Part shown: one piece after another, positions 1,217-64,000 of the stretch | Layout: the number at the start of each line of letters is the position of its first letter | Numbering within the stretch: the stretch's first letter is position 1 | Sequence record: MH560358 | DNA: 64,000 bases | Strand: one strand, 5' to 3' | Origin: Escherichia virus KFS-EC | Notes under the pieces: generated by a model | The model's database searches: none | Seen by the model: the letters and a program-made list of their open reading frames with translations, nothing else | What the model was told of the DNA's origin: nothing | Position numbers and translations under genes: made by a program

Positions 1217-1543
1217 TTAGAAAGAAACAGTTTTCAAGAAATCCAGATTTTTAGTACCGAAAACAGAAAAGTAGTGTTTTCCTTTTTCGGTTTTAGAGAA
1301 AGCGATTGTCTTCTCTACATGGTGACGGAAGCCAGACAGACGATCACCCAGGTCAAGGCGGCAAGCGTAAGTAGTGCCGTTTTCGAAAGTAACCTCGATT
1401 TGAGTTTTGTCGTATTCGCTTTCATAGGCTTTTGCTGCCGCGTCCTGTGCTTTACGCTCGAAGTCTTCGAAGTGGAATACTTCGTTTGCGTTAGCGAATA
1501 CAGAAGATTCAGAGAAGATAACTTTAACAGATACTGGTTTCAT
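1217..1543 (-). CDS. hypothetical protein (108 aa)
   Basis: ORF whose ATG directly abuts a conserved promoter-leader cassette ending ...AGGAGTATCAAAATG. Confidence 0.55.
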   Translation of the reverse strand: MKPVSVKVIFSESSVFANANEVFHFEDFERKAQDAAAKAYESEYDKTQIEVTFENGTTYACRLDLGDRLSGFRHHVEKTIAFSKTEKGKHYFSVFGTKNLDFLKTVSF

Positions 1544-1620
1544 TTTGATACTCCTTAGTAGTTCGTGTTTCGTTTCGATGGGTGTATTATGCTATACACC
1601 CTCTCTCGTGTCAACAACTT
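1544..1620 (-). promoter_or_regulatory. PeSL-like early promoter + stem-loop + leader cassette
   Basis: Minus-strand reading: TTGACA -35, AT-rich -10 within an inverted repeat, conserved CGAAACGAAACAC leader, GGAG SD, ATG. Same cassette recurs at least 10 more times in the window. Confidence 0.6.
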
Positions 1621-1622
1621 TT

Positions 1623-1811
1623 TTAGTCTTTTTTCATAATTTCTAGAGCAGTTTCTACAGCACCTTTCCAACCTTCCCACATAATGGACATAGTAAGGAA
1701 GTTAAAGCACCCGCAGGAATCAACCTTTTTAGAGATAAACCATTCTACAAACGCTTCGCTCATACCATGCTCTTTAGCGGATTCGCGTAATTGTTCAATT
1801 TGGTCTTCCAT
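1623..1811 (-). CDS. hypothetical protein (62 aa)
   Basis: ORF with GAGGTGA SD upstream. Confidence 0.4.
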   Translation of the reverse strand: MEDQIEQLRESAKEHGMSEAFVEWFISKKVDSCGCFNFLTMSIMWEGWKGAVETALEIMKKD

Positions 1812-2037: not shown

Positions 2038-2259
2038 TTATAGTTGATCAGCGATGTAAGCGTGACAAGCGCGGAGTTTCATTAATGCACTACCTTTCAC
2101 TTCGCCTACGATGTTCATAACTTCTAAGCGGTCGGATGGATTCATCTTAGAGCACCAGATCTGGTTAGCCAATTCCAGTTTACTCATATTTGGTTCCATC
2201 TCAAACAGTTCACGCTCAAAGTCGATAATTTCTTTTGCTGCGTCTTTAAAGTTAATCAT
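2038..2259 (-). CDS. hypothetical protein (73 aa)
   Basis: ORF immediately downstream of a PeSL-like cassette. Confidence 0.5.
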   Translation of the reverse strand: MINFKDAAKEIIDFERELFEMEPNMSKLELANQIWCSKMNPSDRLEVMNIVGEVKGSALMKLRACHAYIADQL

Positions 2260-2322
2260 TTTGATTCTCCCGTTTCGTTGATGGTTGTATTGTAGGGGAG
2301 TTATCCTCCCCTGTCAACACTT
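2260..2322 (-). promoter_or_regulatory. PeSL-like early promoter cassette
   Basis: TTGACAGGGGAGGATAACTCCCCTACAATACAACCATCAACGAAACGGGAGAATCAAAATG on minus strand; GGGGAG...CTCCCC inverted repeat spans the -10 region. Confidence 0.6.
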
Positions 2323-2325
2323 TTA

Positions 2326-2511
2326 TCAGAAATATGCAATATAGTTTGCCAGTCCTACAGAGTCATCATTCGGCATTGCTTTTACTGCCAGTTCAAACCC
2401 TGCTTCAACTTTCTGTTTAGCGGATTCTTCGTTATAACCCCAGATTACCAGAATAGCTACTACGTTTTCTTTGCTTACTGCTTTCAGTGCTTTAGTGATG
2501 CGACGTGCCAT
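2326..2511 (-). CDS. hypothetical protein (61 aa)
   Basis: ORF preceded by PeSL-like cassette. Confidence 0.5.
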   Translation of the reverse strand: MARRITKALKAVSKENVVAILVIWGYNEESAKQKVEAGFELAVKAMPNDDSVGLANYIAYF

Positions 2512-2596
2512 AATTTGATTCTCCGTTTAAGAAAGTGTGTTTCGTTTCGATGGGTGTATTATGCTATAGGCCGGGTCTGGTGTCAACAACTTTTTT
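2512..2596 (-). promoter_or_regulatory. PeSL-like early promoter cassette
   Basis: TTGACA at about 2581-2586 (minus strand), conserved leader CGAAACGAAACACACTT and GGAG SD. Confidence 0.6.
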
Positions 2597-2614
2597 AAAA
2601 AAATTTTAGGCAAT

Positions 2615-2638
2615 AAAAAAGCCACTCCGAAGAGTGGC
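2615..2638 (-). terminator. intrinsic terminator (minus-strand orientation)
   Basis: GCCACTC-CGAA-GAGTGGC hairpin followed by a T-run when read on the minus strand. Confidence 0.6.
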
Positions 2639-2789
2639 TTATAGGGAAGGTAGCGAATCTTCCTTGTCTCCAACCTGCTAGCGGCCTAGCAAGTGAATGC
2701 TTTAGCGTACCGGATCGCCCACATACGCTGTAATAAATGCGGCTAGGTGACGTCCAAATCATTCTAACCGCGCTGTCTTTAGTTCACTA

Positions 2790-3008
2790 TTATTTATATC
2801 GCTTTCTCTCGCGACGTTTTTGATCTTCTTCCTTGATAGAGTTAAATGCATCAAAAAGACACATGACACTAATAATAAACATAACCGTATTTTCTACGAT
2901 ATCCCACGGCTTCGCATCAGTACAGATCCCCAAAACGGTAAGAAATGCAAATAAGGCAGAAGAGATCACAAGCATGATACTTGCTAAGATATAAAAAGTC
3001 ATTTTCAT
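2790..3008 (-). CDS. small membrane protein (72 aa)
   Basis: Two hydrophobic segments and a basic C-terminus (RRERKRYK). Confidence 0.45.
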   Translation of the reverse strand: MKMTFYILASIMLVISSALFAFLTVLGICTDAKPWDIVENTVMFIISVMCLFDAFNSIKEEDQKRRERKRYK

Positions 3009-4068: not shown

Positions 4069-4140
4069 ATTTTGATTCTCCTTTCGTTTGTTTGTGGGGG
4101 GTATCTTACTACCCCCGTTTCATGTTGTCAACTATTTTTA
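4069..4140 (-). promoter_or_regulatory. PeSL-like early promoter cassette
   Basis: TTGACA (4126-4131 minus), GGGGGTAGTAAGATACCCCCC inverted repeat, leader CAAACAAACGAAAGGAGAATCAAAATG. Confidence 0.55.
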
Positions 4141-4515
4141 AGAATATTTTACTTCGTCTACAATGTCTTTCATGACATTGATTTCCATTCCGGTCAGAAC
4201 ACGTTGGAACATGTGCTGCACATACGCTTTCAGGTATTCATTTGATGGCTTACTATCGAAAGTCTTTTTAGTGTAGTAGTCATCACCGAAAGCTACTGTA
4301 ATTACATTTTCGTCGTCGTTCCAAGCGATATAAGCAAATTTGCCGTTATCCCAGAAGCGAGCACTAATTGCTACTTTTGTTGAATCGAATCCTACTTCGC
4401 TGTGAGATTCAAGAACTACTTGCGTACCAGTTTCTTTATGAATGTAGTAGCGGGATACTAAGTCAAAGTTACGGGTGTAGTGACATTCGAATTTATCTTT
4501 AAACATCATCATCAT
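4138..4515 (-). CDS. hypothetical protein (125 aa)
   Basis: ORF preceded by PeSL-like cassette. Confidence 0.55.
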   Translation of the reverse strand: MMMMFKDKFECHYTRNFDLVSRYYIHKETGTQVVLESHSEVGFDSTKVAISARFWDNGKFAYIAWNDDENVITVAFGDDYYTKKTFDSKPSNEYLKAYVQHMFQRVLTGMEINVMKDIVDEVKYS

Positions 4516-4588
4516 TTTGATTCTCCTAAGTGTGTTTCGTTTCTATGTGTGCATTATGCTATAGTCGTTTATGGTTGTCAACACCTAA
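4516..4588 (-). promoter_or_regulatory. PeSL-like early promoter cassette
   Basis: TTGACA (4576-4581 minus), conserved leader and SD. Confidence 0.6.
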
Positions 4589-4592
4589 AAAC

Positions 4593-4618
4593 AAAAAACC
4601 CCGAAAAATTTTCGGGGT
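4593..4618 (-). terminator. intrinsic terminator (minus-strand orientation)
   Basis: CCCCGAAAA/TTTTCGGGG hairpin with T-run on minus strand, just downstream of the 57B-like gene. Confidence 0.6.
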
Positions 4619-6724: not shown

Positions 6725-6767
6725 CGAAACAAATTTTTATTATTCTAAAGATCTTTCTTCGTTTTGG
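6725..6767. repeat. copy A of a ~45-bp repeated intergenic element
   Basis: CGAAACAAATTTTTATTATTCTAAAGATCTTTCTTCGTTTTGG; near-identical to sequence at 42904-42961 and 43066-43111. Confidence 0.7.
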
Positions 6768-6836
6768 TTATGTTTTAACCAATAACTATATTTTTATACA
6801 GTAATAAATAAAACGGGTACTATACGAGGACTTCTT

Positions 6837-42903: not shown

Positions 42904-42961
42904 CGAAACAAATTTTTATTATTCTATAAGATAAGTCTTCGTTTTGATCATAATTTAATCA
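42904..42961. repeat. copy B of ~45-bp repeated intergenic element
   Basis: CGAAACAAATTTTTATTATTCTATAAGATAAGTCTTCGTTTTGATCATAATTTAATCA. Confidence 0.7.
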
Positions 42962-43065
42962 TACATGTAAAAAACTACACAAAAGGATATCGCTTCGCGA
43001 ACTCCTACGGAGTATAACATTTGTGTTACAATATGTAGTGATTAATAATTAACCAAAGATACATT

Positions 43066-43111
43066 TTCTATGTTCTAAAGATCTTTCTTCGTTTTGATCA
43101 TAATTTAATCA
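43066..43111. repeat. copy C of ~45-bp repeated intergenic element
   Basis: TTCTAAAGATCTTTCTTCGTTTTGATCATAATTTAATCA; 24-nt identical to copy A, 26-nt identical to copy B. Confidence 0.7.
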
Positions 43112-43168
43112 AACAGTATTAATATTGTGCACATGTAAACTAAAATTATGTTAATAACAGATACAAAA

Positions 43169-56834: not shown

Positions 56835-57655
56835 TTAGTCACCTCACCGAAAATTGTAAATTGTCTACGATTCTCATCGCCGAAAGATTCTACTACGTCG
56901 TTTACCTTGACGCAAGTCCCGCGCGGTAAAATTACTTCACATTCGCAAGGGTTCCATGCAATTGACCCAACAACAAAACCTTTATGATCTTTTACGTCAA
57001 TTACCCATGATACATTACAAGAATGTTGCATCTTTCCGGTCATTGATTCATATCGATTCTCACAATAAAGGCTAGTGCTGTTTGATAGCCATCCTCCAAA
57101 GATGATTGGTGTCATGCTGGTTGACACAAAGTTTTTAAAGGTAAATTCCTTATCTTCAATAATACGCTCTATTGTCTGAATGTCAAGATGTTGACCGCGA
57201 TAAAGAGTACCGTTTAACTTTTCGGTTTTATCCATGACACAATCCATCAAATCGACAATCTCTGATATCTCATCGGTCATGTCTTCTTCCCCTAAGAGAG
57301 CACCATTTACCCATTCGTATTGCTCAGACACATAATCACAGATTGCATTATATTCTGCTGGTGTTATGTTGTTATGTTTGTAATGTTTGAATACATTATC
57401 TCCAAAGTCTTCGGAGTGTACTTCATACATCACATTAATGATTTTCTTGACAAATCCATAATCTTGTGTCTCACGCTCAAGGAAGCGGATAACCTTCACA
57501 TAATCATCAAAGTTAATCTGATCGCTGATCATCTCAGTGATCATGTAACCATTAATCCCCTCAATGTCATATGTTTCGATGTAATTATCCATACGTTCCA
57601 TCATTGATTCGCGTGATTCTTCTGAAAGACGAAAATCCTGTAATTTCTTGAACAT
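56831..57655 (-). CDS. Alt-like ADP-ribosyltransferase paralogue (274 aa)
   Basis: R-S-ExE triad: LYRG, FVSTS, ECEVILPRG, parallel to YRG / YVSTS / ECEILLPRG in the adjacent Alt. Confidence 0.7.
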   Translation of the reverse strand: MFKKLQDFRLSEESRESMMERMDNYIETYDIEGINGYMITEMISDQINFDDYVKVIRFLERETQDYGFVKKIINVMYEVHSEDFGDNVFKHYKHNNITPAEYNAICDYVSEQYEWVNGALLGEEDMTDEISEIVDLMDCVMDKTEKLNGTLYRGQHLDIQTIERIIEDKEFTFKNFVSTSMTPIIFGGWLSNSTSLYCENRYESMTGKMQHSCNVSWVIDVKDHKGFVVGSIAWNPCECEVILPRGTCVKVNDVVESFGDENRRQFTIFGEVTK

Positions 57656-57666
57656 TTTAAGCCTCC

Positions 57667-57700
57667 CATATAACAGAAAACGGGGCTAGTATAAAACTAG
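57667..57700. terminator. bidirectional hairpin terminator
   Basis: Perfect palindrome AAAACGGGGCTAGT...ACTAGTCCCCGTTTT. Confidence 0.65.
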
Positions 57701-57733
57701 TCCCCGTTTTAGTCAACCATTATTTCTTAAAAA

Positions 57734-59785
57734 TTACATTTTAAATTTATCTGGCATTGCGTCTACAGATACCAGATCAGCGATAAGCTGACGTAGAGTT
57801 GCCTTATCTGCTTTCTTACGTTCGGTTTTAGCTTCGCTAATGAAGCTGGAGAAAGACAGGTCAGAAGCAGGTTTAACAACACCTTCACGGATGAATGCAT
57901 CACCGTCCGCGATCATCTCGCCAGATTCTTGTAATGCTGCCAGTTCATTTTTGTTCATAATATGTGCCTCAATGTAATAAGTTTCTTGTGAATCCGTCGA
58001 TGCCGTAGCACGAGTTACCGTATCAAAGGATAACACAACACCGCGAGGAAGTAAAATCTCGCATTCTTTGTAAGCAAATGCTTTGTTACCTACTGGCAAG
58101 ACAGGGAGGTTTTCCGCGCCAGCAATGGAGAAAGCAACATTAGCGCCACCTTCACCACGAGAGCCAGCCATAGAATCAACACCAGCAACGGCACTAGCCA
58201 CGTTTGCATTCCAGCCGCCAAAAATGTTAGGTGCAAGGGAAGTGCTCACATAGTTTTTAAAGTAAAACGCTTTTTGCTTACGTGCAGTTTCCCACATTTG
58301 CGACCGGAAGTCCATACCACGATACAGAATAGTACCCGGATCAAGTTTAACGCCATAGTTGGAGAAGGCATTATCCAGTGCATCGCACATCTTGACCAAT
58401 TCTTCTGGATCTGAGATGCCTTCAAACTCTTCCAGCTTACGGTCGGTTAGGAAGTTGTTCATATTGATGTATGCTGCATCGGCATATTCGCTCAACACAA
58501 AACCTTCCGCGCCTGGCAGATCAAGATCAATATCTGCCATCATTTCACCCATGTTGCTAGCAATTGCTTCAAACATACCGGAAGCAACATTACGTAGGGC
58601 ATCGGTTTTAATCTGGGTGATGTGACTACGCAGCATTTCAGCTTTTACATCTGCTGGCATAGACTGGTCTACTCGAACCATTGCTAGGGCGGTGATCTTG
58701 TTTTCGAATACTTCCTCGCTCATGATTTCTTTTAAGCGTTTGATTGATGCTGCGATAACTTCCGCAGACAACGGATCATATTGATCCTGAACTTTTACCA
58801 GTTCGCTTACTGCGTATTTTGCATCGGCTTCGCTTTCAAAAATAGTACGCATGAAACCATAGCGAGTGATAATATCACTTGTCCAGTCATTCAGAGAACG
58901 GGCGGTTGAACGTTCTAAGGCTTGACGATCAATCAGAGTATTAAACTGTTTCTTAGGTTCGGCTTCGGTGATATCTTCTTCCGGTTTAAGATTAATTTTT
59001 TCTGGATGATTCACATAGTCGCTGTTATAGGTCGCTTGAGTTTTCAGCATTTCTTCTTTAGTCAAACGAGATTTAGCCGCTACGCGTTGTTCCGCTTCCG
59101 CGTTTCGTTCTTCTTCTGACACAAGACTAGCCGCATACGCCTCATCTTTAGTCAGTGATTCACCAGTAGCCTTAGATACCCAGCGATCACCTAAATCACT
59201 TTCTACTTTAGTGAACAAGGATTCATCAAGTTTAATCCCTTTAATCTTATCAATCGCCATACCGCGACGCTTGACAACAACTAAAGCGATCTTTTTGCTG
59301 GTCATTACTTCCTGCTGGAATACTTCAAACTTCGGTGTACGACGCACCAAACGCTCTATAACGCGCTTAACCAGTTCGGTCTTACCTTTCATGCGGGATA
59401 CGTTAAAACGGAACATAACAGCGTCTAATTGCGCTTTACGGGCTGTTTCCATAACCACATCAAAAGCACTTGCCATGACTGCAATCGGGTTATCGCCTAG
59501 ACCATTTTTAAGCTGTACAATACGACCGCTTTTGTTCATTTCGCACAGTACAACATGTGCGGTCTTGTCACCCATACGAATGATTTTAGGTGTTTTGTTG
59601 GTGAAGTTACAAAGACGGACAATCACATCTTTATCGCGTGTCTGTACTGCAAAAAGCTGTTTAGGATTCTGCTTAGGCTTTAAGCACTGTACAGGAGCAA
59701 TACTGCCAAAGTTTTCTTCCTCTTCCGTCAACAGCCATTTCTCGAAAGATTCAATCATTAGATCGTCGATTTCTAAGTTAAACAT
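57734..59785 (-). CDS. alt: ADP-ribosyltransferase Alt
   Basis: 683 aa, C-terminal R-STS-ExE motifs; position after gene 54 as in T4. Confidence 0.85.
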   Translation of the reverse strand: MFNLEIDDLMIESFEKWLLTEEEENFGSIAPVQCLKPKQNPKQLFAVQTRDKDVIVRLCNFTNKTPKIIRMGDKTAHVVLCEMNKSGRIVQLKNGLGDNPIAVMASAFDVVMETARKAQLDAVMFRFNVSRMKGKTELVKRVIERLVRRTPKFEVFQQEVMTSKKIALVVVKRRGMAIDKIKGIKLDESLFTKVESDLGDRWVSKATGESLTKDEAYAASLVSEEERNAEAEQRVAAKSRLTKEEMLKTQATYNSDYVNHPEKINLKPEEDITEAEPKKQFNTLIDRQALERSTARSLNDWTSDIITRYGFMRTIFESEADAKYAVSELVKVQDQYDPLSAEVIAASIKRLKEIMSEEVFENKITALAMVRVDQSMPADVKAEMLRSHITQIKTDALRNVASGMFEAIASNMGEMMADIDLDLPGAEGFVLSEYADAAYINMNNFLTDRKLEEFEGISDPEELVKMCDALDNAFSNYGVKLDPGTILYRGMDFRSQMWETARKQKAFYFKNYVSTSLAPNIFGGWNANVASAVAGVDSMAGSRGEGGANVAFSIAGAENLPVLPVGNKAFAYKECEILLPRGVVLSFDTVTRATASTDSQETYYIEAHIMNKNELAALQESGEMIADGDAFIREGVVKPASDLSFSSFISEAKTERKKADKATLRQLIADLVSVDAMPDKFKM

Positions 59786-59853
59786 TTTATATCCTCTAGT
59801 TGATAACCTATAAACCTATATTTATGAAAACGGGGATTAACGCCCCCTTTTTA

Positions 59854-60066
59854 TTATAATGCACCATCAAGCAATTGCTCTAAGGTGTATCCTGAATAGT
59901 CTTTTTCAATCAGGATATATTTTCCTACTCGTTTAATACAACCACGCATTTCAACGTATTCTGCGTAGTTGATGGTACGAGTTGTTCCATCTTCCAGTAA
60001 TGCAGTACCGATTTCGTTAATGCGGTCATAAGTTACGTCGGTAATGATGATTTCGATGTTAGCCAT
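59854..60066 (-). CDS. hypothetical protein (70 aa)
   Basis: Start set at ATG 60066, which abuts the PeSL-like cassette; the track's N-terminal extension is translation of the leader. Confidence 0.5.
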   Translation of the reverse strand: MANIEIIITDVTYDRINEIGTALLEDGTTRTINYAEYVEMRGCIKRVGKYILIEKDYSGYTLEQLLDGAL

Positions 60067-60140
60067 TTGATACTCCTTAGTAGTTCGTTTCGGTATGTGT
60101 GCATTATAGGGGATCACCGATCCCCTGTCAACAACTTTTT
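60067..60140 (-). promoter_or_regulatory. PeSL-like early promoter cassette
   Basis: TTGACA (60126-60131 minus), GGGGATC...GATCCCC inverted repeat, leader CGAAACGAACTACTAAGGAGTATCAAATG. Confidence 0.6.
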
Positions 60141-60657
60141 AGTTATTTTTTAATTGTTCATCTTGCAATAATGCAATCACATGCTGGCGATGTTCTTCCG
60201 ATTGAGGTACACCGAAAAAGTTTGTTTTGTAGAAATACTCTAATCGGTCTTCTCGTGTGCTCTCTTCCATCATGATCGCGGGTAGTCCGAGATTTCGGAA
60301 ACGTCGCTTTTCTGCTGGCGTAAAATCACTGTAATACAACATAGAATCATCATTACAAGCAATGCTAAACTCATCTTTCATAAAGGAGAATATTGCGTTT
60401 AAACGCTGTTTACCGTCCACGATTTCGATCTCATAGCGAGAGCCATCATCAATCTTAGCCATTGCGATAGCACCAACCGGAAAATCATTAATCAGGTTTT
60501 CGATAAACATACGTTTGTTTTCGGTGTCCCATACCAAAGGACGCTGATAATCTGGGTTCATGTTGATATAGCCATCTTCTAACCATGCTTCGTAAACAGA
60601 GATGACAAAGTTTTTAGTATTGGTATAGTAACGGCGTTTAGGCGTTAAACGGTTCAT
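60139..60657 (-). CDS. DUF262 / ParB-like nuclease-domain protein
   Basis: DYQRPLVWDTENKRMFIENLINDFPVG...VDGKQRLNAIFSF fits the DUF262 signature (Y-x-RP-x-VW ... DGQQR); start at 60657 with AGGAG SD. Confidence 0.65.
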   Translation of the reverse strand: MNRLTPKRRYYTNTKNFVISVYEAWLEDGYINMNPDYQRPLVWDTENKRMFIENLINDFPVGAIAMAKIDDGSRYEIEIVDGKQRLNAIFSFMKDEFSIACNDDSMLYYSDFTPAEKRRFRNLGLPAIMMEESTREDRLEYFYKTNFFGVPQSEEHRQHVIALLQDEQLKNN

Positions 60658-60658
60658 G

Positions 60659-60991
60659 TTATAGTCTCCTGAATGGATCATCACGTAAATCAATATCTTT
60701 TAAGAACTCATCCCATGAATGGCGGATATTGTTCTTAATTCTCCAGATAAGCGCAGGGATTGAACGCTCTCCCATCTGGAAGTATGGATCATATGATCCG
60801 TATGACCAATATGCTACTACAATTCCACAATCAGCGCAATAGTATTCTATTTCACTTGCTGGCGACCAAAGTCCATCAATATGATCGGTGATCTTGCTTT
60901 CGATGTTATGGCTATGACAATCAGGGCAACGGATGCAATGACCTTGTTTATCGTAATTTGACGTTAGAGAATACTTAAACAATCTCATCAT
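60659..60991 (-). CDS. Cys4 zinc-ribbon protein (110 aa)
   Basis: CIRCPDCHSH...CADCG metal-binding pattern. Confidence 0.5.
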   Translation of the reverse strand: MMRLFKYSLTSNYDKQGHCIRCPDCHSHNIESKITDHIDGLWSPASEIEYYCADCGIVVAYWSYGSYDPYFQMGERSIPALIWRIKNNIRHSWDEFLKDIDLRDDPFRRL

Positions 60992-61704
60992 GGATCCTTA
61001 TTTGCTTCAAATACTGCCTTTGCGAATCCTCGCGGGGTAAGTGACCTGATAGTCTTTGTTTTCGTTCCTTTCCCGCCTAGCTTAGAATGCTGTTTACTGT
61101 ACCCTTTATTAATCTGCACCGGTTTCTTTTCTGGCATTATAAAGCCTTGTCCGGTCCATAAGCAAGTCTTTTTTGGGTACATATCACGGGCGGCAATATA
61201 CTCAGGAAACGTAGGATGCTTATCATCTTCCGGCAAATAACCGCCATATTCCCACGGATGGAACATGTAATCAGGCTTACGCCACATGCTAGAGATAACG
61301 CTTACAGGATTCTCTATCATGTAGGGAACTCCTAGCCATTCACCCAAATAAGCGGTTATTTTAGCTGCCCGTACATCATGAACTTGAATCAATGGTCCTT
61401 GTTCTAGTTTCTTTCGTTCAAAGTGCGCAGCGCCACTAACAGCTAAATTGGTGCACGGTGGGAATGCAAAGATAATATCCGGTTTCCCCCATTCAAGGTC
61501 CATTGCTCTTTCCAGCCAGTTCAAATCAACCCAGGTGTTTACATAGGTAATGTTTTGATGTTCAAATCGGGTATTATATTTTTTGTATGTACCGTGGTCG
61601 CCATCGTCAGCATTAAAGCAGATCACCTTATGACCCGCTTTAGCCCATTCTAACCCCATTATCCCCGATCCGTCAAAGTTGCAGAATATTAATTTTTGTT
61701 TCAT
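60988..61704 (-). CDS. compact DNA C5-cytosine methyltransferase-like protein
   Basis: Motif I-like FCNFDGSGIMG, motif IV IIFAFPPCTNLAVSG (catalytic Pro-Cys), motif VI MIENPVS in canonical order and spacing; no recognisable target-recognition region or motifs IX/X. Confidence 0.6.
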   Translation of the reverse strand: MKQKLIFCNFDGSGIMGLEWAKAGHKVICFNADDGDHGTYKKYNTRFEHQNITYVNTWVDLNWLERAMDLEWGKPDIIFAFPPCTNLAVSGAAHFERKKLEQGPLIQVHDVRAAKITAYLGEWLGVPYMIENPVSVISSMWRKPDYMFHPWEYGGYLPEDDKHPTFPEYIAARDMYPKKTCLWTGQGFIMPEKKPVQINKGYSKQHSKLGGKGTKTKTIRSLTPRGFAKAVFEANKDP

Positions 61705-61946
61705 ATACTCCCCTTTAATCCAACACAGATTTTAGAAGGTTCTTTGCCGTGCCACATTAAGTAAAGTCCGTTAATGCGGCCTTGTTTTGTATATGATTCT
61801 TTTCTGATCTTCTTATAGTGTCGTGTTTCCTCAGCCGATTGTTTAGAATACCAATCATAAAGGAAGATGAACAAAGGCCACCCATTAGCGGCCTTAATGC
61901 AGTTATTCAAAAATTCCTTATTGCGTTTAATTAATTTTCTTTTCAC
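61701..61946 (-). CDS. hypothetical protein (81 aa)
   Basis: ORF, stop/start overlap with neighbours. Confidence 0.45.
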   Translation of the reverse strand: MKRKLIKRNKEFLNNCIKAANGWPLFIFLYDWYSKQSAEETRHYKKIRKESYTKQGRINGLYLMWHGKEPSKICVGLKGSI

Positions 61947-62194
61947 GCTGCCCCCATTGGTTTGATAGTAACAGAATCTAAAAGACCTTTGTTAGCCAGT
62001 TCGCGGCAAGTTTTCAGATCCGCAACTTCCCAGCCAGCCGCAATCAGGTTATCGATTAGGCTGTTAGCAACTTCTTCGCTCATGAAAGAGCACTGTTTGC
62101 CGATGGTGTAGCGTACACGCTGTAATTTCAGTTTACGGAAGCCTTTAACGTTCAGGTCTTTAGCGATTTTCTTTGCGGTTTCGATGTTAGCCAT
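61943..62194 (-). CDS. hypothetical protein (83 aa)
   Basis: First gene after a PeSL-like cassette. Confidence 0.5.
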   Translation of the reverse strand: MANIETAKKIAKDLNVKGFRKLKLQRVRYTIGKQCSFMSEEVANSLIDNLIAAGWEVADLKTCRELANKGLLDSVTIKPMGAA

Positions 62195-62275
62195 TGTTTG
62201 ATTCTCCTAAGTGGTATCTCGTCTTGATGGTTGTATTGTAGGGGGAGTTATCCTCCCCTGTCAACACTTTTTATA
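62195..62275 (-). promoter_or_regulatory. PeSL-like early promoter cassette
   Basis: TTGACAGGGGAGGATAACTCCCCCTACAATACAACC...GGAGAATCAAACAATG (minus strand). Confidence 0.6.
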
Positions 62276-62278
62276 AAA

Positions 62279-62446
62279 TTATTTGTTAATTTCTGGTGCG
62301 TTGCTAGGATAGTAACCTTCTTTAACTCCGAGATATTTCGCAACCATCCCTACAATCTTCTGTGCTACTACAATGTCAAATTTCAGATAATCTTCGCCGT
62401 GGGTTTCAATGATATATGCTTCACATGCTGCTTTAGTCTCGAACAT
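62279..62446 (-). CDS. small hypothetical protein (55 aa)
   Basis: Below track cutoff; ATG abuts a PeSL-like cassette. Confidence 0.45.
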   Translation of the reverse strand: MFETKAACEAYIIETHGEDYLKFDIVVAQKIVGMVAKYLGVKEGYYPSNAPEINK

Positions 62447-62520
62447 TTTGATTCTCCTATTTCGTTTCGTTATGTGTGTATTATAGGGGATCTCCCGATC
62501 CCCGTCAACAACTTTTTTAA
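62447..62520 (-). promoter_or_regulatory. PeSL-like early promoter cassette
   Basis: TTGACG variant -35, GGGGATCGGGAGATCCCC inverted repeat, conserved leader. Confidence 0.55.
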
Positions 62521-62522
62521 AA

Positions 62523-62804
62523 TTATTCGTGATTAGTTTCGATGTTGTGCATTTTGCACCAGTTCAGCCAATCACCCAGATCCTGATAGTTAATGCTTTT
62601 ATCTGCTGCCATCGTTTTTGTCTTGATACCCATATGTGCGTTATGAGTAAGCATTTTTACAGTGAACTCAATTTTATCACCTTTAGCTTTAACATCAACC
62701 AGTTTGGTCCACTGGCTACCAGCGCCGCGAATGTTCATACCAACGATGTTTCCGATGTATGCTTCTTTGTTTTTCAGGATTTCGGTTGCTTTGATGAATT
62801 TCAT
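62523..62804 (-). CDS. hypothetical protein (93 aa)
   Basis: ORF preceded by PeSL-like cassette. Confidence 0.5.
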   Translation of the reverse strand: MKFIKATEILKNKEAYIGNIVGMNIRGAGSQWTKLVDVKAKGDKIEFTVKMLTHNAHMGIKTKTMAADKSINYQDLGDWLNWCKMHNIETNHE

Positions 62805-62878
62805 TTTTGATTCTCCAGTTCGTTTCGGTATGTGTGTATTATGCTATGTTCTTACTTTGGTGTCAACAACTTTTTTAG
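62805..62878 (-). promoter_or_regulatory. PeSL-like early promoter cassette
   Basis: TTGACA (62861-62866 minus) plus conserved leader. Confidence 0.6.
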
Positions 62879-63144
62879 ATATTTTCAGAAATAAATTTTA
62901 AAACTTGACGTAAATGTTTCTCATCTTTGATAGTCGCCGGAAGTTCTTCTTTTACTTCCTGTGCAAGATAGATATTTCCGTTCCAAGTGAAAGATCCGTC
63001 TTCGTTTACGCGATAGCTGAACATCCACTCGCAATCATTTTCGATTTCATATACACACAGAAGGGTGTAATCGTTAAAGTTATTGATTTCAAGGTCGAAG
63101 CCGTGACGTTTTGCAAAGTTGGTAGTGGTTTTAGTCAGCGCCAT
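62875..63144 (-). CDS. hypothetical protein (89 aa)
   Basis: ORF preceded by PeSL-like cassette. Confidence 0.5.
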   Translation of the reverse strand: MALTKTTTNFAKRHGFDLEINNFNDYTLLCVYEIENDCEWMFSYRVNEDGSFTWNGNIYLAQEVKEELPATIKDEKHLRQVLKFISENI

Positions 63145-63225
63145 TGTTTGATTCTCCTAAGTGGTATCTCGTTTCGATGTGTGTATTATGCTATAGGCGT
63201 GATTTGGTGTCAATGCCTTTTTTAA
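63145..63225 (-). promoter_or_regulatory. PeSL-like early promoter cassette
   Basis: TTGACA (63208-63213 minus) plus conserved leader. Confidence 0.6.
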
Positions 63226-63238
63226 AATTTTATGCAAT

Positions 63239-63263
63239 AAAAAGCCGACGCTAAGGTCGGCTA
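63239..63263 (-). terminator. intrinsic terminator (minus orientation)
   Basis: AGCCGAC-GCTAAG-GTCGGCT hairpin with T-run on minus strand. Confidence 0.6.
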
Positions 63264-63269
63264 ATAAAA

Positions 63270-63578
63270 TCATTTAGACAAATAATCATTCTGTGCAATC
63301 CGGTCGGCGTATGCTGGTGTTATGTCAATCGCCAACACTTTAACGCGTGCTTTCTTGCGACCTGGGTTTTCTCGTAACCAGTGCTCATGACCGTGAACAT
63401 TTTTATACTGAGATGCTTCTTCGAAGGTACGGATCGGACCTGGGTAATCAGCGTAAAGGATCTCTAGGTCATCGGTGATGTAAAAATATACATCATAATT
63501 ACTGTTCTCTAGTTTAAGCAGAGAGTTGCGAAATTGTGGTAAATTCTCGCGGGTAAATTCAACTACAAGATTTTTCAT
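63270..63578 (-). CDS. hypothetical protein (102 aa)
   Basis: ORF; no recognisable motif. Confidence 0.45.
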   Translation of the reverse strand: MKNLVVEFTRENLPQFRNSLLKLENSNYDVYFYITDDLEILYADYPGPIRTFEEASQYKNVHGHEHWLRENPGRKKARVKVLAIDITPAYADRIAQNDYLSK

Positions 63579-63628
63579 AGTGATATCCTCATTCAGATAG
63601 ATTAAAAGGGGGCTTAACGCCCCGTATA

Positions 63629-63916
63629 TTAAAACAGTCCTTCCTGTACACCGTAGTAGAGTTCGTCGCTGATAATTTCATTAATGCGACGGTGTGCATA
63701 TTCCTGATTTGCGAAGTTGTCAGCAAGTTCTACTTTAGTTTCGCCGTCATGAGTCCATTTAGTGATAACTTTACCATCTGCAAATTTGAAGTTGAACTCT
63801 TTAGCTACTGCATCGCGTACCAGACGTGCGAACTTGTTGTTACGGATTGCATTATCGGTTTCGTGTGCAGCGTGAGCGAATTTGTTAACTTTCAGAGTGA
63901 TAGTAATGTATGCCAT
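63629..63916 (-). CDS. hypothetical protein (95 aa)
   Basis: ORF preceded by PeSL-like cassette. Confidence 0.5.
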   Translation of the reverse strand: MAYITITLKVNKFAHAAHETDNAIRNNKFARLVRDAVAKEFNFKFADGKVITKWTHDGETKVELADNFANQEYAHRRINEIISDELYYGVQEGLF

Positions 63917-64000
63917 AATTTGATTCTCCTAGTTAGAAAGTGTATCTCGTTTCGATGGGGATATTATGCTATATCCCCGATCCGGTGTCAACACTTTTTA
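63917..64000 (-). promoter_or_regulatory. PeSL-like early promoter cassette (runs to window edge)
   Basis: TTGACA (63986-63991 minus), GGGGATAT...ATATCCCC inverted repeat, conserved leader. Confidence 0.55.

Follow-up and report, generated by a model that had tools for sequence, protein, structure and literature searches.

The right-hand end of the 64,000-nt stretch analyzed here (the window, from Escherichia virus KFS-EC; MH560358) very probably belongs to a Krischvirus, i.e., an RB49/phi1-type T4-like coliphage, and carries its HPR3 cluster of promoter-early stem-loop (PeSL) cassettes. The region at 59.8-64.0 kb is 96-98% identical to the Krischvirus phages phi1, RB49, JSE, GEC-3S, and G37-3, was matched as a whole in 52 Krischvirus genomes at 96-98% identity, and aligns gene for gene with phi1 ORF185-198 and RB49p185-198, corresponding to HPR3 of RB49. 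The initial annotation had identified the cassettes as PeSL-like, and their identity of 96-98% to the phi1/RB49 cassettes at HPR3 bears this out; judging from the sequence comparison, we regard them as orthologues of the founding phi1/RB49 PeSLs and not merely as PeSL-like units. PeSLs were first defined in coliphages phi1 and RB49 at the same locus by Arbiol et al. (2010; PMC2839356), who distinguished five subclasses by stem position and, around ORF192, counted 'eight PeSLs in an ~5-kb area'; the concept was later carried to other T4-like phages (Comeau et al., 2014; PMC4122927). Thus, the repeated ~80-bp units are genuine and the finding is correct, but it is already known, since the phi1/RB49 PeSLs at HPR3 were described in 2010. 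The window phage shares with phi1 and RB49 the A/T tract, sigma-70 promoter, G4/C4 hairpin, Shine-Dalgarno sequence (SD), and ATG, as well as the association with indel breakpoints, and differs at the strain level only. Compared with phi1 and RB49, ORF186 is absent and one chimeric PeSL is found instead, as in G37-3 and PTE-Eco09; compared with RB49, ORF192 and ORF195/196 are lacking.

All six minus-strand cassettes reported previously were found, each of ~75-90 bp and with ATGs at 60066, 62194, 62446, 62804, 63144, and 63916:

60067-60146, minus strand: PeSL of the ORF185 homologue; -35 TTGACA 60126-60131, -10 TATAAT 60103-60108 (12/12 hexamer positions); hairpin GGGGATC-GGT-GATCCCC 60109-60125, filling the 17-nt spacer (centroid -12.8 kcal/mol); predicted +1 60096, 30-nt leader; GGAGTATCAAA 60066-60076, the final base being the A of ATG
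62195-62279, minus strand: PeSL heading the ORF190-189.1-189-188-187 run; -35 62259-62264, -10 TACAAT 62235-62240; hairpin GGGGAG-GATAA-CTCCCC 62242-62258 in an 18-nt spacer (z = -3.07); predicted +1 near 62228; GGAGAATCAAA 62197-62207
62447-62523, minus strand: PeSL of the ORF191 homologue; -35 TTGACG 62503-62508, -10 TATAAT 62480-62485; hairpin GGGGATC-GGGA-GATCCCC 62486-62503; predicted +1 near 62473; GGAGAATCAAA 62447-62457
62805-62881, minus strand: hairpin-free PeSL-type promoter and leader of the ORF193 homologue; -35 62861-62866, -10 CATAAT 62838-62843; predicted +1 near 62831; GGAGAATCAAA 62806-62816; MFE -2.8 kcal/mol, z = +1.18
63145-63262, minus strand: PeSL of the ORF194 homologue, promoter without hairpin; -35 63208-63213, -10 CATAAT 63185-63190; predicted +1 near 63178; GGAGAATCAAA 63147-63157
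63243-63262, minus strand: canonical terminator AGCCGAC-CTTAGC-GTCGGCT followed by TTTTT, in the AT-rich tract upstream of the promoter of the 63145 cassette
63917-64000, minus strand: PeSL of the ORF198 homologue; -35 63986-63991, -10 CATAAT 63963-63968; hairpin GGGGATAT-AGCATA-ATATCCCC 63957-63978, overlapping the -10 (z = -2.86); predicted +1 63956; GGAGAATCAAA 63919-63929; upstream AT tract cut off by the window end

These cassettes are the top six sigma-70 matches in 57-64 kb, with 11-12 of the 12 hexamer positions. The -35 TTGACA ascribed to each copy is present in five of the six, while the sixth has TTGACG at 62508. The conserved leader running up to the ATG was recovered as CGAAACGA in five copies and as CAAGACGA in the remaining one; AGGAGAATCAAA is exact in four of the six and carries a one-base mismatch in the other two. 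The predicted start, set at the A after the 6-nt discriminator (ACACAC, ACACCC, or ATCCCC), is derived from the -10 position and the RB49 early-promoter consensus, which has T or C at -12, is C-rich at -3 to -1, and was stated to fit 5'-end mapping (PMC1524935). The predicted 5' UTRs are of 22-40 nt. Promoter strength is established in the literature, where lacZ fusions demonstrated the promoter activity of PeSL206/205 (PMC2839356).

The cargo genes at 59854-63916, named after the phi1 ORF numbers, and two stand-alone hairpins are as follows:

59832-59847, minus strand: terminator-like hairpin 3' of ORF185, upstream of alt; the GEC-3S and G37-3 annotations list it as a terminator
59854-60066, minus strand: ORF185
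60139-60657, minus strand: ORF187, GmrSD_N/DUF262 domain
60659-60991, minus strand: ORF188, weak zinc-ribbon match under the Pfam cutoff
60988-61704, minus strand: ORF189, annotated DNA methyltransferase
61701-61946, minus strand: ORF189.1
61943-62194, minus strand: ORF190
62279-62446, minus strand: ORF191
62523-62804, minus strand: ORF193
62875-63144, minus strand: ORF194
63270-63578, minus strand: ORF197
63609-63623, minus strand: intrinsic-terminator-like hairpin GGGGC GTTAA GCCCC, then CTTTT, between ORF198 and ORF197, without promoter
63629-63916, minus strand: ORF198

A Pfam scan of 10 cargo proteins (all but ORF198) assigned no family to eight of them. The description of the cargo as single small genes does not apply to the cassette at 62264, which precedes five overlapping ORFs (62194 down to 60139), or to that at 63991, with two ORFs. 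The hairpins at 59832-59847, 63243-63262, and 63609-63623 have the form of true U-tract terminators and are separate from promoters.

Searching the 64-kb window with a profile built from the cassettes yielded 10 strong minus-strand copies with E-values of ~1e-14 to 1e-20 (5e-14 at most), of which six make up the 60-64 kb array and four lie at 1.5-4.6 kb; a divergent eleventh was also picked up. For the 11-mer GGAGWATCAAA, 11 occurrences were counted and 0.08 expected. The copies outside the array, and a unit of unrelated sequence, are:

1542-1629, minus strand: PeSL copy at the left end; hairpin GGGTGTAT-AGCATA-ATACACCC over the -10; z = -2.84; profile E = 5e-19
2258-2332, minus strand: PeSL copy, profile match; spacer with the same hairpin, GGGGAG-GATAA-CTCCCC, that is found at 62242-62258; z = -3.51
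2512-2601, minus strand: PeSL copy with hairpin-free promoter; profile E = 2e-20; a strong terminator adjoins upstream (2612-2644)
4069-4144, minus strand: divergent PeSL; TTGACA, 17-nt spacer, TAAGAT; hairpin GGGGGTA-GTAAGA-TACCCCC over the -10, then GGAGAATCAAAATG; profile E = 0.008
4514-4596, minus strand: PeSL copy with hairpin-free promoter, profile match; terminator hairpin CCCCGAAAATTTTTCGGGG plus T-run adjoins upstream
57650-57725, minus strand: PeSL-like unit directly after the alt stop codon; TTGACT, 17-nt spacer, TATACT; 13-14-bp hairpin AAAACGGGGACTAG / CTAGCCCCGTTTT over the -10 (-19.7 kcal/mol), then GGAGGCTTAAAATG

The proposal that the cassettes serve as a recombination substrate was upheld. 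The recombination role is directly visible because all large indels relative to eight relatives break within cassettes. Against Phi1, GEC-3S, RB49, JSE, G2494, and Brandy, the breakpoints are at 60066-60142, 62516-62527, 63166-63261, and 62278-62286/62447, each of them inside a cassette or at its edge. The last pair flanks ORF191, which is missing at that position in Brandy; in Brandy and PTE-Eco09, a second locus holds the ORF191 module (86-88% identity). At the upstream edge of cassette 62447-62523, RB49 and G2494 have ORF192 and JSE another ORF (PMC2839356), and RB49 and Brandy have ORF195/196 inserted at cassette 63145-63262. Cassette 60067-60146 is a chimera of phi1/RB49 PeSL187/186 (5' half) and PeSL186/185 (3' half), with ORF186 lost and the crossover within the leader common to both parents. 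Mini-circles containing ORFs 191-194 or ORFs 192-193 have been sequenced, with crossovers mapping to the stretch from the -10 to the SD or ATG (PMC2839356).

Hairpins reside inside the promoter in four of the six cassettes: in three, the hairpin takes up the -35/-10 spacer, and in the fourth it overlaps the -10. An inverted repeat had been said to embed the -10 in every copy, and this is true at 63957-63978 but not in the other five cassettes; the examples given, GGGGATC/GATCCCC (60109-60125, 62486-62503) and GGGGAG/CTCCCC (62242-62258), are within the 17-18-nt spacer. The promoters at 62805-62881 and 63145-63228 folded into no hairpin (~0 kcal/mol). With two of the six promoters devoid of an internal hairpin, the stem-loop of the PeSL definition is supplied at 63145 only by the separate upstream terminator, and cassette 62805-62881 thus departs from that definition in having none. 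Every promoter hairpin ends at or before -1 of the predicted start, a geometry also reported for RB49 early promoters (PMC1524935). Like Rho-independent terminators, these are G+C-rich intergenic hairpins, but the promoter-embedded ones are followed by UAUAAU or the discriminator instead of a U-tract, and a consensus terminator scan called none of them. In experiments, the stem-loop of PeSL211/210 showed terminator activity, cutting downstream lacZ expression as strongly as rrnB T1 (PMC2839356). By extrapolation from this single published test, each window hairpin may act likewise.

The variable hairpin and conserved leader had been read as a sign of a selected 5' UTR RNA structure; on this view, the structure would form in the cassette's own mRNA and control its translation or stability. 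The hairpins are indeed strong (-12 to -15 kcal/mol), and there is one compensatory double change, from GGGTGTAT/ATACACCC to GGGGATAT/ATATCCCC. The covariation check did reveal compensatory variation, but of only about one event (two pairs changed on both sides at once; 70% paired cells vs 67% in shuffles), and stem swapping by recombination could yield the same pattern. Moreover, the hairpins lie between -35 and -1, and the cassette's own transcript should lack at least the 5' arm (RB49 consensus, PMC1524935); being upstream of the predicted +1, they would be absent from the 5' UTR, and their RNA form would arise only in read-through transcripts from upstream. In all 10 copies folded, the leader is predicted to stay single-stranded, and two hairpin-free cassettes carry the same leader. 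We thus consider a structure in the own 5' UTR highly improbable. Unlikely, albeit far less so, is that the G4...C4 palindromes act mainly as DNA, either as a cruciform/hairpin protein target (endonuclease VII or a recombination factor) or as a rigid G+C-rich spacer tuning the promoter. Such a role agrees with the absence of a T-run after the embedded hairpins and with the retention of the G-run/C-run (usually four G, range three to five) despite a changing loop and inner stem. phi1 PeSL206/205 and the PeSL upstream of phi1 ORF210 share the hairpin GGGGATC-ACC/GGT-GATCCCC with window 60109-60125, and the 17-nt palindrome is present in both orientations, the loops GGT and ACC being exact reverse complements, which implies a DNA-level event; Arbiol et al. 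also speculated that GGGG...CCCC may be a protein target (PMC2839356). Nevertheless, the sole published functional test found strong transcription termination by the hairpin class (PMC2839356), the crossovers of the chimera and the mini-circles are in the -10-to-SD leader and not at the hairpin, and hairpin-free cassettes are also at indel breakpoints (63166-63261).

The likeness of the cassettes might also reflect functional convergence on a strong promoter and ribosome-binding site, with no part in gene shuffling. Function alone would conserve the -35, -10, and SD, but conservation extends to sequence that has no known part in promoter or SD function, namely the ACACAC discriminator, the CGAAACGA leader, and positions 5-11 following GGAG. 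Against the cassette breakpoints, the chimera, and the experimentally sequenced mini-circles, we find convergence hardly credible.

The RegB/S1 endoribonuclease target in T4 early mRNAs has the consensus GGAGRAYARAA (Durand et al., 2006; PMC1702504), and the cassette block resembles it as an 11-nt single-stranded block with GGAG first, in an early-mRNA SD, and with an A-rich tail. The block GGAGAAUCAAA agrees with the consensus at 10 of 11 positions, its conservation (1.1-2.0 bits) drops to 0.36 bits exactly past position 11, and RB49 encodes RegB. GGAG(A/U)AUCAAA is, by sequence likeness, a candidate RegB/S1 cleavage site. Yet 49 of 53 distinct copies have C at position 8, whereas T4 RegB sites strongly prefer A and RB49's own regB site, GGAUAAUAAAA, has A there; the poorly cut T4 gene 1 RNA has C at positions 8 and 10.

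The T-even IP (internal-protein) loci likewise combine repeated early promoters, an A-rich upstream tract, nearby hairpins, and hypervariable small genes, but their elements are analogues, not homologues, of PeSLs according to Arbiol et al. (PMC2839356), with a T4-type early promoter (GTTTAC -35) and weaker A/T-rich stems in contrast to the canonical TTGACA -35 and G4/C4 stems here. Integron cassettes and lambdoid 'morons' resemble PeSL modules as small accessory genes mobile with or beside expression signals. Unlike integrons, PeSL modules have no integrase or attC-type site and move when their repeated regulatory linkers undergo general homologous recombination; what sets them apart from morons is that the regulatory sequence itself is the vehicle (PMC2839356).

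Altogether, we propose that the PeSL cassette is a self-contained expression linker of four parts between small accessory genes. An A/T-rich, UP-element-like tract with the stop codon of the upstream gene would be followed by a near-consensus sigma-70 early promoter, used by host RNA polymerase right after infection. In most copies, a G4...C4 hairpin within the spacer, across the -10, or ahead of the -35 would stop or attenuate transcripts coming from upstream. A short, probably unstructured leader would then run from +1 (A[U][A][C]CGAAACGA...) to the invariant ribosome-binding block GGAG(A/U)AUCAAA. As the cassettes share 60-90 near-identical nt in direct orientation, the phage recombination system would cross over between them, and such crossovers would delete, insert, swap, or circularize the flanked ORFs while a promoter and a ribosome-binding site stay with every gene.

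On the minus strand between 59.8 and 64.0 kb of the window, 11 short ORFs are separated by six near-identical units of ~80 bp, and the coordinates that the initial annotation had given for six cassettes were accurate to the base. This region shares 96-98% identity with 52 Krischvirus genomes, including phi1, RB49, JSE, GEC-3S, ECD7 and G37-3, corresponds gene for gene with phi1 ORF185-ORF198, and represents HPR3, a hyperplastic region of RB49/phi1. The cassettes, named here by the ends of their -35 elements, are as follows.

60067-60146, minus strand: cassette 60131, with a G4/C4 hairpin of 6-7 bp filling the spacer
62195-62279, minus strand: cassette 62264, with a spacer-filling hairpin of the same kind
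62447-62523, minus strand: cassette 62508, with a spacer-filling hairpin of the same kind
62805-62881, minus strand: cassette 62866
63145-63262, minus strand: cassette 63213
63917-64000, minus strand: cassette 63991, with an 8-bp hairpin (GGGGATAT/ATATCCCC) covering the -10

Promoter-early stem-loops (PeSLs) were defined from a comparison of phi1 and RB49, and combine an A/T-rich tract and a sigma-70 consensus promoter with a stem-loop, frequently of polyG...polyC type, and a final Shine-Dalgarno sequence (SD) and ATG (Arbiol et al., 2010; PMC2839356). The same study counted 52 PeSLs in phi1 and 51 in RB49, and singled out the part of HPR3 around ORF192 for 'eight PeSLs in an ~5-kb area' (PMC2839356). 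In the GEC-3S record, a promoter is already annotated at every corresponding position. The array is real and was correctly recognized, but it has already been described, at this very locus: the PeSL cassettes named in the initial annotation are the same element as in phi1/RB49 and, since Arbiol et al. (2010) described PeSLs there, the identification was right and the finding is not new.

All six cassettes carry a PeSL-type promoter (TTGACA, a 16-18-nt spacer and a TATAAT-like -10), with TTGACG in place of TTGACA once, spacers of 17 or 18 nt, and TATAAT, CATAAT or TACAAT as the -10 hexamer. They are also the top six matches of a sigma-70 scan of 57-64 kb, at 11-12 of the 12 hexamer positions. 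At the 5' end, the stop codon of the upstream gene lies within the A/T-rich tract (TAA...AAAAAGTTG or AAAAAGTG); TAA, an A/T run, and GTTG or GTG before the -35 were found in all five cassettes whose upstream part is inside the window, the sixth being cut by the window end. The 6-nt discriminator is ACACAC or GCACAC in four copies, ACAACC at 62229-62234 and ATCCCC at 63957-63962, and the leader starts with A[TA]CCGAAACGA... or ATCGAAACGAGAT... in five copies and with ATCAAGACGAGAT... in cassette 62264. Every cassette closes with GGAG(A/T)ATCAAA followed by the ATG, at a distance of 0-4 nt in all six, with a one-base overlap at 60066. The location in a hyperplastic region before ORFans is likewise shared with the PeSLs of phi1/RB49. 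A profile built from the cassettes retrieved ten copies in the 64-kb window with E-values of 1e-14 to 1e-20, all on the minus strand, six at 59.8-64.0 kb and four at 1.5-4.6 kb; a divergent eleventh copy lies at 4069-4144. The 11-mer GGAGWATCAAA occurs 11 times in the window against 0.08 expected. No Rfam covariance model matched either strand of 57000-64000 at E <= 1, and ARAGORN found neither tRNA nor tmRNA in the whole window.

The hairpins are less uniform than first described. An inverted repeat embedding the -10 had been claimed for each copy, but three hairpins fill the spacer, one lies over the -10, and two cassettes have no hairpin in the promoter. Folding gave -12 to -15 kcal/mol for the embedded hairpins of the four promoters and 0 to -0.2 kcal/mol, with no hairpin, for the promoters of cassettes 62866 and 63213. 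Five PeSL subclasses are distinguished by stem position, the commonest having the stem in the -35/-10 spacer or across the -10 (PMC2839356). A canonical U-tract terminator at 63243-63262, in the A/T tract 5' of cassette 63213, would together with that cassette fit the subclass with the stem upstream of the -35. A stem-loop is found inside the promoter in four of the six cassettes and upstream in a fifth (63145-63262), and is missing from 62805-62881, where no hairpin was found inside the promoter or upstream (0 kcal/mol).

Intrinsic terminators have a U-tract directly after the hairpin, whereas the embedded cassette hairpins are followed by TATAAT, TACAAT or ATCGAA. None of them was called by a terminator scan of 57-64 kb, which called three separate hairpins at 59832-59847, 63243-63262 and 63609-63623. 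For individual phi1/RB49 elements, a promoter activity of ~13,000 Miller units (PeSL206/205) and a stem-loop terminator activity comparable to rrnB T1 (PeSL211/210) have been reported (PMC2839356). Terminator or attenuator activity of the embedded hairpins would be an extrapolation from that single tested stem-loop. We read the hairpin of phi1 PeSL206/205 as GGGGATC-ACC-GATCCCC, and that of the phi1 PeSL upstream of ORF210 as GGGGATC-GGT-GATCCCC, the latter being identical to window 60109-60125. These two forms of the 17-nt spacer palindrome are exact reverse complements of each other, so the hairpin has been flipped in place in some copies. Either form carries two GATC (Dam) sites, and a Dam is encoded by RB49. 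A unit of PeSL architecture but unrelated sequence was also noted beside the alt gene.

60109-60125, minus strand: palindrome in the window; the palindrome forms were also recorded at L004 (JSE), L006, L007 and L010:470-500
57734-59785: alt gene, just downstream of the cassette region
57650-57725, minus strand: PeSL-architecture unit of unrelated sequence, directly after the alt stop codon

The latter unit has TTGACT and TATACT separated by a 17-nt spacer; a hairpin of 13-14 bp lies over the -10 (-19.7 kcal/mol) and is followed by GGAGGCTTAAAATG. This hairpin was also called by the terminator scan, on the plus strand.

The initial annotation had further proposed a selected RNA structure in the 5' UTR. 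The early-promoter consensus of RB49, which is stated to agree with 5'-end mapping, has T or C at -12 and is C-rich from -3 to -1 (Nolan et al., 2006; PMC1524935), and the (T/C)ATAAT followed by ACAC(A/C)C of the cassettes conforms to it. If +1 is taken as the A after the 6-nt discriminator, all hairpins end at or before -1, and the cassette's own mRNA would consequently be devoid of the hairpin. On this geometry relative to the predicted +1, we reject the hairpin as a part of the cassette's own 5' UTR. Furthermore, ten copies were folded, and in each centroid structure the leader, of 22-40 nt, was predicted to stay single-stranded. A structure in the 5' UTR is thus unsupported, and this detail of the first reading is wrong. 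As RNA, the hairpin would exist only in transcripts reading through from upstream, in which it may act as a terminator or attenuator, the role published for it.

Whether the stem itself is maintained was approached through covariation in the -10-overlapping hairpins (19 distinct copies, taken from the window and from eight relatives). Two pairs carried substitutions in both arms (U-A to G-C, G-C to A-U), but in a single stem variant, about half of the copies in this class being unpaired and the 70% of cells that pair exceeding the 67% in shuffles only marginally. On these figures, we do not regard the stem as proven by covariation. Among the spacer-class hairpins, for which the alignment was gapped and which were judged by eye only, there were G-U substitutions (GGGGGTC...GATCCCC), a paired insertion in phi1 (GGGGGATC...GATCCCCC), a T-A to G-C change (GGGGAT/ATCCCC vs GGGGAG/CTCCCC) and a loop flip. 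The stem variation is consistent with stem maintenance, albeit not strongly. As cassettes recombine, replacement of a whole stem is as good an explanation as stepwise compensation.

The proposed role of the cassettes as recombination substrates was borne out by comparison with relatives. The indel junctions against six relatives are all within cassettes, as expected of PeSLs. Where the window has a single cassette, Phi1, GEC-3S, RB49, JSE, G2494 and Brandy possess ORF186 together with a second PeSL, and two alignment blocks overlap there at 60066-60142 or 60066-60107. The nucleotide alignment resolves 60067-60146 as a chimera, in which the A/T tract, -35, hairpin and -10 are from PeSL187/186, and the ACTACTAAGGAGTATCAAATG leader and ORF185 are from PeSL186/185. 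The crossover lies within the shared ACAC(A/C)CATACCGAAACGA segment, which is also the crossover zone of the published mini-circles, namely the inverse PCR circles of ORFs 191-194 and 192-193, whose crossovers fall in the interval from the -10 to the ATG or SD (PMC2839356). The arrangement with a single cassette and no ORF186 is common to G37-3 and PTE-Eco09. ORF192 is present in RB49 and G2494 at window 62522-62527 and an unrelated ORF in JSE at 62516-62522, both positions being the upstream edge of cassette 62447-62523; ORF195/196 of RB49 and Brandy lie between duplicated copies of a cassette (63166-63261); ORF191 is absent from this position in Brandy, which has a copy elsewhere (88% identity), and two copies are found in PTE-Eco09. 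That the cassettes are merely convergent promoters is rejected, since the indel breakpoints fall in them and one is a chimera. Altogether, these comparisons confirm the role in recombination and add one new example at strain level. The first 16 nt of ORF185 and ORF190 (ATGGCTAACATCGAAA, codons MANIE) are in common, although the proteins are otherwise unrelated.

60051-60066, minus strand: one occurrence of the shared 16-nt gene start
62179-62194, minus strand: the other occurrence

Cassette homology thus extends a few codons into the coding sequence, probably the trace of an earlier crossover within the 5' end of a gene.

One gene per cassette, as initially described, does not apply throughout: cassette 62264 heads five overlapping or abutting ORFs (190, 189.1, 189, 188 and 187), and cassette 63991 precedes two, ORF198 and, after a hairpin, ORF197, which lacks its own promoter. 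Pfam gave no family for eight of ten cargo proteins, one confident match and one weak match, and nothing that explains the cassettes. ORF187 has a GmrSD_N (DUF262) domain (E = 5e-20), ORF188 matches a zinc ribbon weakly, short of the Pfam cutoff, and ORF189 is a Dcm-type DNA (cytosine) methyltransferase by annotation in relatives. Within the five-gene run, 60139-61704 (minus strand) looks like a DNA-modification or anti-restriction cluster in the hyperplastic region. Two further features were noted elsewhere in the window.

2606-2792, minus strand: non-coding stretch of 187 nt with G+C above its surroundings
6733-6789, 42928-42965 and 43063-43119, plus strand: a different repeat of ~40-57 nt (AAGATCTTTCTTCGTTTTGATCATAATTTAATCA...), its three occurrences all outside PeSL regions

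The non-coding stretch separates a series of small membrane-protein ORFs from the PeSL at 2512-2601, with a strong terminator at its end and a predicted fold of -61.7 kcal/mol (z = -3.17). It had only sub-threshold matches in Rfam, is 96-100% identical in 57 Krischvirus records, where it is never annotated as RNA, and was not found outside these records in the phage collection searched. We regard it as a candidate small RNA or structured 3' UTR.

The invariant GGAG(A/U)AUCAAA closing every PeSL might be a cleavage site for phage RegB with ribosomal protein S1, a reading suggested by sequence resemblance that we consider possible but rather unlikely. The RegB/S1 target is an 11-nt single-stranded site starting with GGAG, with the general consensus GGAGRAYARAA and the T4 consensus GGAGAAUAAAA (Durand et al., 2006; PMC1702504). 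GGAGAAUCAAA agrees with the RegB/S1 consensus at 10 of 11 positions. RegB/S1 sites have an invariant GGA plus G (or U) at position 4 in the SD of early genes, and all cassette copies have GGAG. The tail RAYARAA has A at positions 6, 8, 10 and 11, a pyrimidine at 7, and no C at 5, 6 or 9; the cassette tail A/U-A-U-C-A-A-A agrees at positions 6, 7, 9, 10 and 11, and at position 5 in five of the six flagged cassettes, the copy at 60066-60076 having U. In contrast, 49 of the 53 distinct copies have C at position 8, at which A is strongly preferred in RegB/S1 sites, and C occupies positions 8 and 10 of a T4 RNA that is cut poorly. These 53 variants were collected from the window, from eight loci and from 30 kb of RB49. 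In the sequence that follows the GGAG anchor, their information content is 1.1-2.0 bits at positions 5-11 and 0.36 bits at position 12; the 11-nt block keeps its place relative to GGAG, whereas the ATG follows at a variable distance of -1 to +4 nt. The target is single-stranded, and the cassette leader and SD were predicted as unpaired in all ten centroids. regB is annotated in RB49 (L009, 21557-21979), outside the window here, with GGAUAAUAAAAUG as its SD, and a review reports in vivo cleavage by RB49 RegB at the GGAU SD of its own mRNA. RegB goes unmentioned in the PeSL paper.

PeSLs provide one of the clearer mechanisms on record by which large lytic phages can shuffle accessory genes and keep regulation intact, the repeated promoter/terminator linkers doubling as expression signals and recombination sites. 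The window adds the loss of ORF186 via a leader-to-leader crossover and leaves the overall picture unchanged. The RegB/S1 match is the one point that could add something: if true, a PeSL would stop incoming transcription, fire a strong early transcript, and mark its ribosome-binding site for destruction minutes later, so that any ORF landing behind it would inherit a complete early-burst expression programme, and gene mobility would be linked to timed mRNA decay.
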